Source: Picochlorum sp. SENEW3 (taxonomy: Eukaryota). Taken from it: a stretch of 64,000 nucleotides of DNA. Positions 1 through 37,162 of this stretch are shown piece by piece (the stretch's first letter is position 1; every line of letters begins with the position of its first letter). The notes under the pieces are model-generated. The model worked only from the letters and a program-made list of their open reading frames with translations, was not told the origin of the DNA and did no database searches. A program made the position numbers and the translations under genes. The stretch spans positions 434,001 to 498,000 of the forward strand of contig CP120455.1 of the NCBI GenBank assembly GCA_034226945.1. Direction: 5' to 3'.

Positions 1-221
1 TGAATCTCTCTATGCAGACACACATAGTGCCATTGATCAATGTGTTGCAATCTTTATTCCTCTGCATTCACCGCCAGTTGGTAACTGTTTGGGTCCCTCT
101 CCAGACTGCCACGTCCCTCAGCGTGCTCTTCTTGACAGCTGCATTCATTGTATCATCATGACACGCGAGTAGCTAGCACATGTTCTAGTGCATGGACCCG
201 TAATCTTCTAGTATCGATAGA

Positions 222-1067
222 TTATTTATCGTGAGCATTGGCCCCTGCTTCTATCAATGCGTTGACCCTCTCAGCATGACCATGGTGCACAGCTGCCCTC
301 AAGGCAGTCCACCCATCACTGTCACAATAATTCACATCCGCGCCTTTTTCAATCAATGCATGAACCCTCTCAACATCACCATATCGAGACGCCTCCATCA
401 ACGCAGTCCACCCATGTTTGTCGCAAGCATTCACATCAGCACCTGCTTCAATCAAGGCAAAAATTCTCTCAACATCACCATGTCGAGATGCCTCCATCAA
501 CGCAGTCCACCCCTCCTTGTCACACGCATTCACATCAGTCCCTGCTTCAATCAAGGCACAAACTCGTTCTACATCACCACCATCACCAGAGGCAGCCATC
601 AAAGCAGTCTTCCCATCTTTGTCAGGAACATTCACATCAGCTCCTGCATCAATCAAGGCATTGACCCTCTCAACATCGCCACCACCTCCAGAAGCAATCA
701 TCAATGCAGTCCAACCATGCTGATTTTCAGCATTCACATCAGCCCCTGCGTCAATTAAAGCGCGAACTCTCGCAAGATCGCCACCATCACCAGAAGCAAA
801 CATCAACGCAGTCCATCCATCATTGTCACATGCATTCACATCTGCGCCTTTTTCAATCAAGGCACAGACTTTCTCAACATCTCCAGCTCCAGAAGCATGC
901 ATCAATGCAGTCCTTTTATTATCATCATCATGACGAGCATTCACATCTGCCCCCTCTTCGATCAAGGCATACAGTCTCTCAACAGTATCATTTCCAAGAG
1001 CAGAAAACAAGGCAGCCACATCATGCCGTGTTTGGGCACCCGACTCCCTGAATTCTTCCATGTTCAA
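222..1067 (-). CDS. Ankyrin-repeat protein (about 7 tandem ANK repeats)
   Basis: 281-aa ORF built from repeated GWTALMxAS..GDVERVxALIEAGADVNA units; no introns seen. Confidence 0.93.
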   Translation of the reverse strand: MNMEEFRESGAQTRHDVAALFSALGNDTVERLYALIEEGADVNARHDDDNKRTALMHASGAGDVEKVCALIEKGADVNACDNDGWTALMFASGDGGDLARVRALIDAGADVNAENQHGWTALMIASGGGGDVERVNALIDAGADVNVPDKDGKTALMAASGDGGDVERVCALIEAGTDVNACDKEGWTALMEASRHGDVERIFALIEAGADVNACDKHGWTALMEASRYGDVERVHALIEKGADVNYCDSDGWTALRAAVHHGHAERVNALIEAGANAHDK

Positions 1068-1245
1068 TCCCTATCCCCCATATTTCTTTTTTTTTATTTC
1101 AATCTATTGATATGGCTGCTCGAAACCTTCCATATACGAGAGGTTGGCATCTTTTTAATTTTCAAAATTTCAAAATTTCAAATTGGACAGGTAGATGACA
1201 AGGAGCAGATGGGGCCATGTTTGTGAACCACCGCACCGCACGCCA

Positions 1246-33312: not shown

Positions 33313-35331
33313 ATGGTGCGTCTGGCTGGGCTCTGTAAAAGCGGAGCACCCACTCTTCTTCTCACAGTGTGTGGCGCTCAGCAACACCCATCATCATTTC
33401 CATCATCACGTCGAAAGGCGGCACATTGTGTTGTTCATAGAAGTAGAATACTACAATCACCACATAAATATACGAGGACGACCAAGGCATCATCATCATC
33501 ATCCGTTGCAGAGAATTGGTCAGAGGTTGCTTGGGACTTTTTTCCTAGACAGGACAAGCTCATGGTGGCAGCATGCTTGGGTATCAATGTGTTGAGTGTG
33601 ATATCGTACGTGTTGGTAGCACCGTGTTTGGGGCGAGTGATTGATGTGATTTCGAATTCATCATCGTATGGAGCATTGGCCAAGGCTGTGGGTGCCTTGA
33701 CCTTGGCGTACATTGTATCCAATTCAACCTTGGCTGCTCAGGTTCGGTTGGCATCGTGTGTTGGTGAGAGGGTGGCGAGCAGAGTTCGCTCGAAATTATT
33801 CGGCACAATGATGTGGACCGATCACTCCGTGGAGGCGGACTCTGGGACCATGATGTCGTGGTTGTCTAACGATGTACAGGTATTACAGACAACCATAACC
33901 AAGCTTCTCGGCGCGCGAGGTATTCGTTCAGGGTTGGAAACAATAGGCATCATATGCGTGCTGATGTGGTTGAACTGGGTGTTGGCGCTCATGCTGTTGA
34001 TATCTGCTCCTGTGCTGACACCCCTTGTGTTGTCTGCTGCCGCCAAGATTAAAAGCTTGTCTGAGAATGTGCAAGCGTCGACGGCACAGACATCGTCTGC
34101 GGCAAGTGAAATCATAGAAAATCAAAAAATAATTAGAGTGAATCAGGCTGAAGATGCTCAGATTGATAGGTTTAGAGGTCTCGTTGATGAACAGAGCAGG
34201 GTGAATACGCAGCTGATTGTGTACCAGTCGCTCTTGGATGTGTCTGGGAGGCTGAGGAATGTATTTTGCGTGTTATTAACGGTAGGATTAGGAGCTCACT
34301 TGGCTCTGATGAATCAAGTGTCGATAGGAACGTGTTATTCGTTTTTTATTTATGGGTTTGGTTTTGCGTTTGCGCTCAGTAATGTTGCGCAGAGCATTGG
34401 GGAAGTGTTCAAAGTGGTGGGGACGATGAAGCAAGTCATGTCTCACTTTATGTCGGACATCTCCTCTTCCAGGAAACAGACATCCAGTGAGAATAATAAT
34501 AATTTGATCAGATCGGGACTGGATGGTATTACTGTCGAGTTTAGGAATGTCTCGTTTACGCACAAGAGTAGTAGTAGTAGTGAGGAGGGGGATTCCTGGT
34601 CCATGGAGAATTTGAACTTTACCATGCCAGCACATACAACCACGGCACTCGTCGGGCCCAGTGGGGGAGGAAAGTCTACAATTGCTTCCTTGCTGCTAGG
34701 ATTTTACAAGCCAACGTCTGGGGAAATTTATGTGGATGGCGTCCCGTTGTCAGAGATTGATCAATCGTGGTGGAAGGAGCAGATTGGCATGGTGGAGCAA
34801 AAGCCTGGGCTCTTGGTCGGCAAGGTATCTGACGTTGTCTCGTATGGAAATGAGGATGCCACGCGTGAGGACATTGTAAAGGTCTTGGAGCAAACGCAAG
34901 CACTGAATTTTGTCAATAATTTACCCAAAGGATTGGACAGCCTTGTTGGTGGTGATGGTATTGGGATCAGCGGAGGACAAGCCCAGCGGCTTGCCCTTGC
35001 TAGAGCATTACTGCGAAAGCCTCGACTGCTGATTTTGGATGAAGCAACCTCGGCGCTGGACGTGAATACAGAGTCTGCTATCAATATATTTGATGCTTCT
35101 CAGGATGACTGTCCAACAACGCTGGTGATTGCCCATAGATTGAACACAGTTCGGGATGCAGACAATATCATTGTTGTCGCTCATGGAAAAATTGTAGAGA
35201 CGGGAACGCATGACGAACTTGTATCAAATACTGATGGCATCTATGCCAGACTTGTCCAAGGAAATAGCACATTCCTTGATGAGGAGGAACATGCCAATGA
35301 GGAGAATCCTGCTGCTGTGGTCGTGTTTTGA
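33313..35331 (+). CDS. Second ABCB-type half transporter (ABCB28-like)
   Basis: TMD plus GPSGGGKS, ISGGQAQR, LILDEAT, AHRL. Confidence 0.92.
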   Translation: MVRLAGLCKSGAPTLLLTVCGAQQHPSSFPSSRRKAAHCVVHRSRILQSPHKYTRTTKASSSSSVAENWSEVAWDFFPRQDKLMVAACLGINVLSVISYVLVAPCLGRVIDVISNSSSYGALAKAVGALTLAYIVSNSTLAAQVRLASCVGERVASRVRSKLFGTMMWTDHSVEADSGTMMSWLSNDVQVLQTTITKLLGARGIRSGLETIGIICVLMWLNWVLALMLLISAPVLTPLVLSAAAKIKSLSENVQASTAQTSSAASEIIENQKIIRVNQAEDAQIDRFRGLVDEQSRVNTQLIVYQSLLDVSGRLRNVFCVLLTVGLGAHLALMNQVSIGTCYSFFIYGFGFAFALSNVAQSIGEVFKVVGTMKQVMSHFMSDISSSRKQTSSENNNNLIRSGLDGITVEFRNVSFTHKSSSSSEEGDSWSMENLNFTMPAHTTTALVGPSGGGKSTIASLLLGFYKPTSGEIYVDGVPLSEIDQSWWKEQIGMVEQKPGLLVGKVSDVVSYGNEDATREDIVKVLEQTQALNFVNNLPKGLDSLVGGDGIGISGGQAQRLALARALLRKPRLLILDEATSALDVNTESAINIFDASQDDCPTTLVIAHRLNTVRDADNIIVVAHGKIVETGTHDELVSNTDGIYARLVQGNSTFLDEEEHANEENPAAVVVF

Positions 35332-36519
35332 TTTGTGATTCCTCCAGCGAAGATTTGAGATTGCTAGACACAAAAAACCCTATATCCTCACCAAGTACTG
35401 TCTTGAAACTTGAAATGACTGCTTTCACGTCTACCTTGTTCGTGAGAAAAACGATTTTGTAATGACAAAGTGGCAGTGATACATCATTTGGAAGACAAAA
35501 CATGTCTCTGGTATACGAATCAGATCCACCGAGGATGGTGCACCTTTCTGTGATTCCATTTTCAGACAGTATCTTGTGGAATGTCTCGCTGCAGATGCCG
35601 TTGGTGGTGGCCATGGTTTGTTTGTTCGCTTGGCAAAGAAGGAAGGAGAAAAACCCGAAAAGCACTCTATGCTATATCACCGTTCCCTCTGCATATCGAA
35701 AATAGCAACATCATGTGTCTATATAAATCGTTGTGAATCCATCCGATTCGAGATAGAATAAGCCGCGACAACAAAGTGTTTGTTGACTGCTTCAACTAGT
35801 AGTAGTAGATGTTTCCGGCAGCGAGCTCGCTGCACTTGGAACCGTTTCGAGCGGTGATCAGCTTAAAAAAAAATAGATTCCAGCCAAATATATATGTGAT
35901 ACTAATAATGACGAATACGATTGCAAGTACACGAGATTCGGTCTGAAAGTTGACTTCCGTGGCCTTTGGCTACTTTACTGCTCTCGATATCCTCTACTCT
36001 AGGTGAGAAGAATAGATAGTCGGTATTTGGAGAGATAATTATGTATTTAAATTGGAGGGGGTAACAAGATGTACTCATAATTCTGTTGTTTGCTGCAAAT
36101 TCATTGAATAAAGCGCGCTTAAATTCAAATCCGCACTGGGCGGGCGGGAGAGCGTTTGGCCTCGTGATTTTCGTGATTGGGTGCATCGCGGAGCGTCATC
36201 GCGTGGACCAGTCCACTATATAAGAATGAGAAAGTCGCAACAAGAAGTGCCAGCCCTTTTTCTTTGCTGGTACAGCCTATCAAAGGCCACCAGGAAGAAC
36301 CACTTGCCACTTGCCACGTGCACGTGGAGGGTTCTCATTGACATTATTATACTTTACCACGGAAGTAATACCATAGAAGGCATGTCTGTATCGACTTGTG
36401 AATGTAACATACAAAGCTGGAAGCAATAAGTGGTGTACTTCCTTCTGGAAGGAAGTACATCACTTGTTGCTGGAAGCTGCAACGATGTACATATTGCAAA
36501 AAGCTTCTCTCTTTCCTTC

Positions 36520-36536
36520 AAAAATATTAGCAAAAA
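36520..36536 (-). terminator. Pol III T-run terminators downstream of the permuted tRNA
   Basis: Two TTTTT runs on the minus strand (36532-36536 and 36520-36524), beginning about 26 nt after the 5' half. Confidence 0.6.
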
Positions 36537-36562
36537 TTTTAATCCCCTTTCCTTAATTAAAT

Positions 36563-36674
36563 CCTGACCCAAGCCCCTTGACCACTCGGGCACACGATCG
36601 AGTTGAACTCGGGACCTCACGAGGTCTTGTCATGATCGTGACAGGATTCGAACCTGCGCTCTTTCGAACTTGGA
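36563..36674 (-). tRNA. Permuted tRNA-Leu(CAG): 3' half 36633-36674 precedes 5' half 36563-36599; 33-nt spacer 36600-36632
   Basis: Halves rebuild a cloverleaf: acceptor GATCGTG/CACGATC+A, D-arm CCCG/AGGG, anticodon stem CTTGG/CCAAG with loop GT-CAG-G|T, long variable arm, T-arm GCAGG-TTCGAAT-CCTGT. Confidence 0.85.
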
Positions 36675-36742
36675 TATTCTAGGAAACAGTACAAAAGCGG
36701 AATTCTTCCATTCTCAATAAGCCTTTTTTTTTTTTTTTTTTT

Positions 36743-37162
36743 AGCCGTGTTTTCTGCACGCCAAGGCCCTGGAACAGCGGATCCGACCGCCCCTTGGTGT
36801 GCTGAAGAAGCAAGAGAGTGAGAAAATCTGGGCCGACACAAAGTTGCTGCTTGCCTCTAATCCTTAGCCAGGACCTTATAAGCGAGGTCTTATACGAAAT
36901 TTCCTCCGTCCACAGTGCATTATATTCACTACAATAAATATATTATTAATTTGTGTTGCATTCTACGTCTTCTGATATAATATTTAGCAAATATTGTGTA
37001 GTATACGCGGAGAACGAAGCCAATGTTTCTAGGCCCAAGTCATACGGTCGTTTCCATCCGTTGATGTGCGCAATCTGAACTTATTGGTCAATAATTTTTA
37101 TTTTGAGCCGTGTTTTCTGCACGCCAGGGCCCTGGAACAGCGGATCAGACCGCCCCTTGGTG
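36743..37162. repeat. 57-bp direct repeat: 36743-36799 and 37106-37162 (2 mismatches)
   Basis: agccgtgttttctgcacgcca(a/g)ggccctggaacagcggatc(c/a)gaccgccccttggtg, both copies preceded by T-rich tracts. Confidence 0.9.

Follow-up and report, generated by a model that had tools for sequence, protein, structure and literature searches.

A permuted tRNA-Leu(CAG) gene, probably functional, in the trebouxiophyte alga Picochlorum

Permuted tRNA genes encode the 3′ half of the molecule upstream of the 5′ half, the two being separated by an intervening sequence that measures 1-74 bp in the known cases covered by a review (PMC3978253). The table of the same review comprises 34 genes of this kind, distributed among Cyanidioschyzon merolae, Ostreococcus, Micromonas, the Bigelowiella nucleomorph and Thermofilum, a list that agrees with the hosts named in an earlier note on the DNA described here; its entries include a type II tRNA-Leu(CAG) gene in C. 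merolae and tRNA-Leu(TAA) in prasinophytes. In red and green algae, the pathway outlined there starts from an RNA polymerase III transcript, which is cut by the endonuclease at a motif of the bulge-helix-bulge (BHB) type and ligated into a circle; RNase P and tRNase Z then remove the intervening sequence and CCA is added (PMC3978253).

Among green algae, the type II genes of the Mamiellophyceae are characterized by intervening sequences of 11-64 bp, an over-representation of the class II tRNAs for Ser and Leu and a relaxed hBH motif (PMC3978253; PMC3673656). In particular, 7 of the 33 tRNA genes of Bathycoccus are permuted, and permuted genes also occur in its viruses (Michely et al. 2013, PMC3673656). 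More recently, permuted tRNA genes have been described in a trebouxiophyte, Auxenochlorella UTEX 250-A, where they were found because the tRNA set was incomplete, tRNA-Pro(UGG) being the example displayed in Fig. S1 of that work (Plant Cell 2025, PMC12636532). The earlier note, which knew of no report from a trebouxiophyte-type genome, is thus superseded on this point by the 2025 publication.

The locus described here lies in a window of 64 kb, that is, the whole stretch of DNA that was analysed. The window is gene-dense, with long open frames and 42-49% G+C, and carries genes with eukaryotic or plant-type domains such as a Kelch-phosphatase and a TAZ finger. The directly upstream neighbour of the locus, an ABC transporter gene at 33313-35331, encodes a protein with 95% identity to a protein of Picochlorum sp. 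BPE23, 86% to the JGI Picochlorum set, 47% to Nannochloris and 42-44% to Chlorella and Micractinium. The first of these values assigns the host to Picochlorum (Trebouxiophyceae) and bears out the trebouxiophyte-type genome that had been guessed from the letters.

On the minus strand of the window, a 42-nt 3′ half of a tRNA-Leu is followed by a 33-nt spacer and by a 37-nt 5′ half of the same strand, which is the order and the short intervening sequence of a permuted gene. The features of the locus are the following, with negative numbers counted upstream of U38 and positive numbers downstream of G37:

36675..36692, minus strand: predicted leader, no longer than 18 nt, with TTTT at 36696-36693 as its upstream limit
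36686-36681, minus strand: TTTCCT of the leader at −12 to −7, complementary to AGGAAA of the trailer
36683-36681, minus strand: CCT of the leader at −9 to −7, complementary to A35-G36-G37
36633..36674, minus strand: 3′ half of tRNA-Leu(CAG), nt 38-73, 42 nt; it holds U38, the 3′ strand of the anticodon stem, an 11-nt variable arm, the T arm with the B-box-like element GGTTCGAATCC and the 3′ strand of the acceptor stem, and ends in discriminator A
36600..36632, minus strand: intervening sequence (spacer) between A73 and G1, 33 nt
36563..36599, minus strand: 5′ half of tRNA-Leu(CAG), nt 1-37, 37 nt; it holds the 5′ strand of the acceptor stem, U8, an A-box-like D arm, the 5′ strand of the anticodon stem, G32, U33, CAG and G37
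36537..36562, minus strand: predicted trailer, with AGGAAA at +10 to +15 (36553-36548) pairing with the leader
36520..36536, minus strand: two TTTTT runs (36536-36532 and 36524-36520), located 27 and 39 nt beyond G37, where RNA polymerase III probably terminates

On re-reading of the window, the coordinates and letters of both halves and of the spacer were the same as those first reported. Joined by script in the order 5′ half, 3′ half, they give a 79-nt molecule that ARAGORN calls tRNA-Leu(cag), which reproduces the cloverleaf proposed beforehand, including its perfect 7-bp acceptor stem, 5-bp anticodon stem, long variable arm and discriminator A. Specifically, the joined halves form a canonical class II tRNA-Leu(cag), with U8, A14 and GG in the D loop, a D stem of 3 bp with a G13/A22 mismatch, and G26 preceding the anticodon stem, whose loop reads G32-U33-CAG-G37-U38. 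The 11-nt variable arm contains a 3-bp stem, the T stem has 5 bp and its loop, TTCGAAT, carries the TTC that accompanies U33 and G37 as a conserved feature, while A73 is the discriminator; CCA is absent from the encoded 3′ half. As to the demand for such a molecule, CTG accounts for 157 of the 679 Leu codons (23%) in 15 long open reading frames of the window, and a reader of CUG is therefore needed.

The gene is invisible to standard scanners, as had been anticipated. ARAGORN finds no tRNA in the intact 64-kb window, and the Rfam tRNA model touches the 3′ half only, with 17.2 bits against a gathering score of 29. When the same 42/33/37 geometry was joined at 127,776 combinations of position and strand in the window, 13 ARAGORN calls were obtained, all of them offsets of the single permuted locus. 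A more general rotation scan, based on a T-arm-like hairpin followed by an acceptor strand with its complement 0-120 nt downstream, yielded 139 candidates with T arm and acceptor hairpin and 211,836 rotations in the window, and again only the tRNA-Leu(CAG) locus was called. The permuted arrangement is not a product of chance. Neither ARAGORN nor the rotation scan detected another tRNA gene in the window, and no second copy of either half is present elsewhere in it; therefore the locus is not the middle of a tandem pair. It should be kept in mind that ARAGORN is permissive with respect to the join point, many joins being called once the acceptor, T and D arms are good; its call therefore shows the body of a tRNA and cannot decide between a 37/38 and a 38/39 junction.

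With regard to the junction, the earlier note had placed the break at the canonical 37/38 site. Its position in the anticodon loop after G37 is confirmed, G32, U33, CAG, G37 and U38 having been verified letter by letter; the sequence of the window is also compatible with a 38/39 junction in which an A of the trailer would serve as nt 38. A T precedes the anticodon-stem strand in all three 3′ halves available for comparison (that of the window and those of two metagenome loci, L001 and L003, described below), and for this reason a 37/38 (type II) junction is favoured on sequence grounds.

A strict bulge-helix-bulge does not form in the window gene. The central helix is expected between nt 32-35 and positions −3 to −6 of the leader, where only two of the four pairs are made (U33:A−4 and C34:G−5, with G32/A−3 and A35/A−6 left unpaired), while in L003 three pairs are made and the expected bulge of 3 nt is present. 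In addition, the leader CCU that is complementary to A35-G36-G37 is common to the window gene and L003, and pairing of anticodon and leader is of the kind displayed by substrates of the eukaryotic endonuclease. Green algal permuted genes show the relaxed hBH form only, and the eukaryotic splicing endonuclease also measures from the mature domain (PMC3978253); the weakness of the motif is thus a caveat and no refutation.

Comparison with the described systems shows both likenesses and differences. The C. merolae tRNA-Leu(CAG) listed in the review shares with the window gene its anticodon, the type II junction favoured for the latter and the lack of an intron, but belongs to a red alga and has an intervening sequence of 9 bp versus 33 bp; an independent origin of the two is likely, because the permuted tRNA species are not conserved among organisms (PMC3978253). 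The Mamiellophyceae (Ostreococcus, Micromonas, Bathycoccus) are likewise green algae with small gene-dense genomes and a 37/38 junction, the site favoured here (Maruyama et al. 2010 via PMC3978253; PMC3673656); they represent, however, another class, the Leu gene listed for them is Leu(TAA) and not Leu(CAG), and against their relaxed hBH (PMC3978253) stand two of four central-helix pairs at the window junction. Auxenochlorella belongs to the same class as Picochlorum, with the 3′ half before the 5′ half and genes missed by standard tRNA scanners; it is nevertheless another genus, and the example given there is a tRNA-Pro(UGG) (PMC12636532).

Neither the spacer nor the unit as a whole contains a run of four or more T; TTTT is found at −22 and TTTTT at +27 and +39, which agrees with one short RNA made by polymerase III whose leader would not exceed 18 nt. 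Upstream of the 3′ half, a clear TATA box is lacking and only a 19-nt A run is found at −68 to −50. The 33-nt spacer folds no better than its shuffles, and a scan for sigma-70 promoters and intrinsic terminators, signals that are irrelevant to a eukaryote, returned no site. Folding brings leader and trailer together through a 6-bp helix between TTTCCT and AGGAAA. The energy of this duplex, −10.4 kcal/mol, is equalled or exceeded by 2% of 2,000 shuffles and by 12.9% of 18,089 genomic controls of the same geometry, and its use as evidence was dropped, the value not being significant against the genomic controls.

By analogy with the algal pathway, expression of the gene might proceed as follows. 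A single RNA polymerase III transcript would start at most 18 nt upstream of U38, extend from the 3′ half across the 33 nt of intervening sequence into the 5′ half, and end at the T runs 27-39 nt downstream. The anticodon stem would form between the ends of the transcript, with leader and trailer pairing beside it, and the tRNA-splicing endonuclease would cut both off at −1|38 and 37|+1. A tRNA ligase would then join G37 to U38, giving a circular RNA from which RNase P and tRNase Z would excise the intervening sequence at G1 and A73, prior to the addition of CCA.

Independent sequence data were available from 24 public runs holding part of 36300-36950, of which four were compared over 36400-36850; runs X1-X4, from organism A, fall outside this comparison. 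In run X6, which derives from organism C and from a separate study, a contig of 483 nt aligns to 36564-36685 without gaps and with a single difference in 122 nt, spanning the 5′ half, the spacer, the 3′ half and 11 nt of the leader in permuted order. The same order of half, spacer and half in an independently assembled contig means that the arrangement is no assembly artefact of the window, and a misassembly, the risk raised at the outset, is thereby dismissed. The surroundings of this gene core are unlike the window on both sides. In addition, the contigs of organisms B and C (X5, X6) that match the downstream flank do so only up to 36567, that is, five letters into the 5′ half (36563-36567), and continue with unlike sequence. 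This divergence around the gene indicates that the flanks are not conserved with it in these organisms; the break at 36567 could represent an insertion with a short duplication at the boundary of G37 and trailer, or another copy of a flank repeat.

In run X11 (organism D), a contig matches 36427-36599, from the downstream flank through the whole 5′ half, and diverges in the spacer; here too, the 5′ half adjoins the trailer and not a 3′ half. The spacer of the organism C contig is almost the same as that of the window, and that of organism D differs from it. As for the trailer, no difference is listed for organism C and a single one for organism D, the trailer contigs of organisms B and C being unjoined to the 5′ half. 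Where the 3′ half begins and in the adjoining part of the leader, depth in X6 is 3-8 times that of single-copy sequence, and paralogues or haplotypes are suggested by this excess. Among the runs compared, the metatranscriptome X19 is the only one that is certainly RNA, and it has no contig on 36400-36850, which is not evidence of absence, and no joint of any kind is reported across the four runs over the same interval.

Relatives of the gene were also found in metagenomes. A 22-nt pattern of T arm and acceptor matched four metagenome loci, two of which, L001 and L003, are permuted genes for tRNA-Leu that have their acceptor stem and T arm in common with the window gene. In L003 (51.6% G+C), 9 nt of spacer separate a 3′ half of 42 nt from a 5′ half of 37 nt; joined as 37+42, these give a complete tRNA-Leu(aag) by ARAGORN. 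In L001 (45.6% G+C), the 3′ half is followed by a 68-nt spacer whose end resembles that of the window spacer, and the contig breaks off 5 nt into the 5′ half. Together with the organism C contig, these loci provide the same arrangement in data from other organisms, a comparison that the earlier note had proposed for related algal genomes. The two remaining matches, L002 and L004, were rejected as permuted relatives. No exact match to a 25-nt stretch of the 5′ half was found in the metagenome contigs, and in viral contigs neither the 3′-half pattern nor a degenerate 5′-half pattern had any match.

As a separate observation, L002 (1286-1491) and L004 (1450-1655) are ordinary clusters of tRNA-Arg(TCT) and tRNA-Met(CAT) on contigs of 40% G+C, the exact 22-nt stretch in them being a coincidence of conserved tRNA sequence.

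Both permuted metagenome loci have the same neighbour: upstream of the tRNA, the opposite strand encodes a methylmalonyl-CoA mutase (1-1083, minus strand, in L001; 88-657, minus strand, in L003). The gene is intron-less in L001 and present as exon-like pieces in L003, with identities of 77% and 65% over two pieces. The permuted locus is therefore syntenic between two algae in spite of spacers as different as 68 and 9 nt. The best named relatives of the L001 mutase are those of Prototheca (75%), Micractinium (70%) and Auxenochlorella (69%), with 72-73% for other algae; the L001 organism is best described as a green alga, probably a trebouxiophyte.

The comparison between the window tRNA and that of L003 is informative with respect to function. 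The two molecules differ at 13 of 79 positions. Ten of these lie in stems, where they combine into five pair changes, each fully compensatory; the D stem and the anticodon stem hold two apiece and the variable stem one, and no pair is broken. The other three fall in the D loop, the first anticodon base and the variable loop. Moreover, in both anticodon-stem changes the paired bases belong to different halves, one to the 5′ half and the other to the 3′ half. In other words, the separately encoded halves evolve as one folded molecule, and this pattern argues that the cloverleaf is under selection across the two halves. Such a pair of isoacceptors with compensation across halves provides a clean comparative argument for selection on permuted genes as one molecule. 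The same comparison bears on G32, a base that is unusual among tRNAs in general and that had been pointed out as atypical: it is indeed present, but it is no defect of this copy, as tRNA-Leu(AAG) of L003 carries G32 too, which makes it a trait of this tRNA-Leu lineage and no lesion.

Structure, chance controls and conservation with compensatory change in relatives thus support the permuted tRNA-Leu(CAG) reading put forward in the earlier note. On the present analysis, the locus would be a functional type II (37/38) permuted nuclear tRNA-Leu(CAG) gene, matured by the splicing machinery via a circular intermediate, a reading to which a probability of about 0.8 is given and in which transcription, circular intermediate and enzymes are inferred from experimentally studied algal systems. 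A rather unlikely alternative is that of a relic without function, which might for instance be what is left of the inside of an old tandem duplication of a tRNA-Leu gene with an intron, unexpressed and kept by chance. The silence of the RNA run X19 on this stretch would fit such a relic, as would the missing strict BHB, the non-significant pairing of leader and trailer and the position of the gene in an unusually long (2,254 nt), repeat-bearing intergenic region. Against it, every stem pair is intact, with all 10 stem differences from L003 compensatory and two of the pairs reaching across the halves; in addition, data from other organisms show the arrangement preserved, with spacers of 9, 33 and 68 nt, and the outer halves of a tandem pair are absent from the window.

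It is also conceivable, and very improbable, that the locus is a split gene, whose halves would be made as two separate transcripts and joined in trans as in Nanoarchaeum, with no circularised single transcript. A start site inside the 33-nt spacer is compatible with the sequence taken by itself; this spacer, however, contains neither a T run nor an AT-rich, promoter-like stretch, the 9-nt spacer of L003 is too short for a terminator plus a promoter, and every eukaryotic case studied and covered by the review uses one transcript and a circle (PMC3978253). Finally, the probability that an assembly artefact or a chance resemblance has been mistaken for a gene is close to nil, given the near-identical contig assembled from the run of another study (1 difference in 122 nt, same order) and controls that are negative everywhere else in the window. 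The functional permuted gene therefore remains the preferred reading.

A broader possibility, of a tentative kind, is that all tRNA-Leu isoacceptors of Picochlorum and its trebouxiophyte relatives, namely CAG, AAG and one or more others, derive from one ancient permuted gene, which would have multiplied and changed its anticodon while permuted. The window gene, L001 and L003 hint at a whole tRNA-Leu family that has stayed permuted through speciation and anticodon change, and such common ancestry would be marked by G32 and the leader CCU as well as by a common acceptor stem and T arm. If this holds, permuted tRNA genes would represent a stable heritable architecture of core green algae and not sporadic accidents, an architecture which the Mamiellophyceae may have inherited from the same ancestor.

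Strains of Picochlorum are used in biotechnology and have been sequenced widely, and their tRNAs are annotated by means of standard scanners. In two Picochlorum genome papers, tRNA annotation is described as relying on tRNAscan-SE only, and Table 1 of one of them gives 24 nuclear tRNAs for SENEW3 and 42 for P. costavermella (PMC6141220); the supplement of the latter paper has no list of tRNA anticodons. As ARAGORN and the Rfam tRNA model miss the gene, the tRNA lists of Picochlorum are probably incomplete, which affects codon-usage analysis and expression design. No published report of a permuted tRNA gene in Picochlorum was found in the literature covered, most subscription journals lying outside it; a full-text literature search with Picochlorum, Trebouxiophyceae and Chlorella returned Auxenochlorella as the only trebouxiophyte with permuted tRNAs, and the PlantRNA 2.0 preprint mentions neither Chlorella nor Picochlorum. 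What is new here is the genus Picochlorum and, among green algae, probably the isoacceptor, permuted tRNA genes themselves being already known; together with the Auxenochlorella genes reported in 2025, the Picochlorum gene extends permuted tRNA genes into core chlorophytes.

The permuted gene sits in an intergenic region whose 2,254 nt are long when compared to the mean intergenic lengths of 220-364 nt listed for two Picochlorum genomes (Table 1, PMC6141220) and which bears repeats of more than one kind. A 68-nt element without significant fold occurs twice in it, at 36732-36799 and 37095-37162, with 94% identity. The copy next to the tRNA is followed by the 19-nt A run (36742-36724), which ends 50 nt upstream of the gene; A run and repeat together might represent the tail of a retroposon that landed upstream of a polymerase III gene. 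A contig of organism D matches the segment 36751-36850 without any difference, and the depth of this segment is at least about 7 times the single-copy level in three runs. On the other side, some 80 nt downstream of the tRNA unit, a near-perfect long hairpin extends over 36405-36490 (core 36422-36471), with a minimum free energy of −32 kcal/mol and a z-score of −5.7. Its matches to microRNA families are sub-threshold look-alikes only. In run X6 the depth over this hairpin rises to about 15 times the single-copy level, which identifies it as a multi-copy palindromic repeat, perhaps MITE-like, common to Picochlorum relatives.
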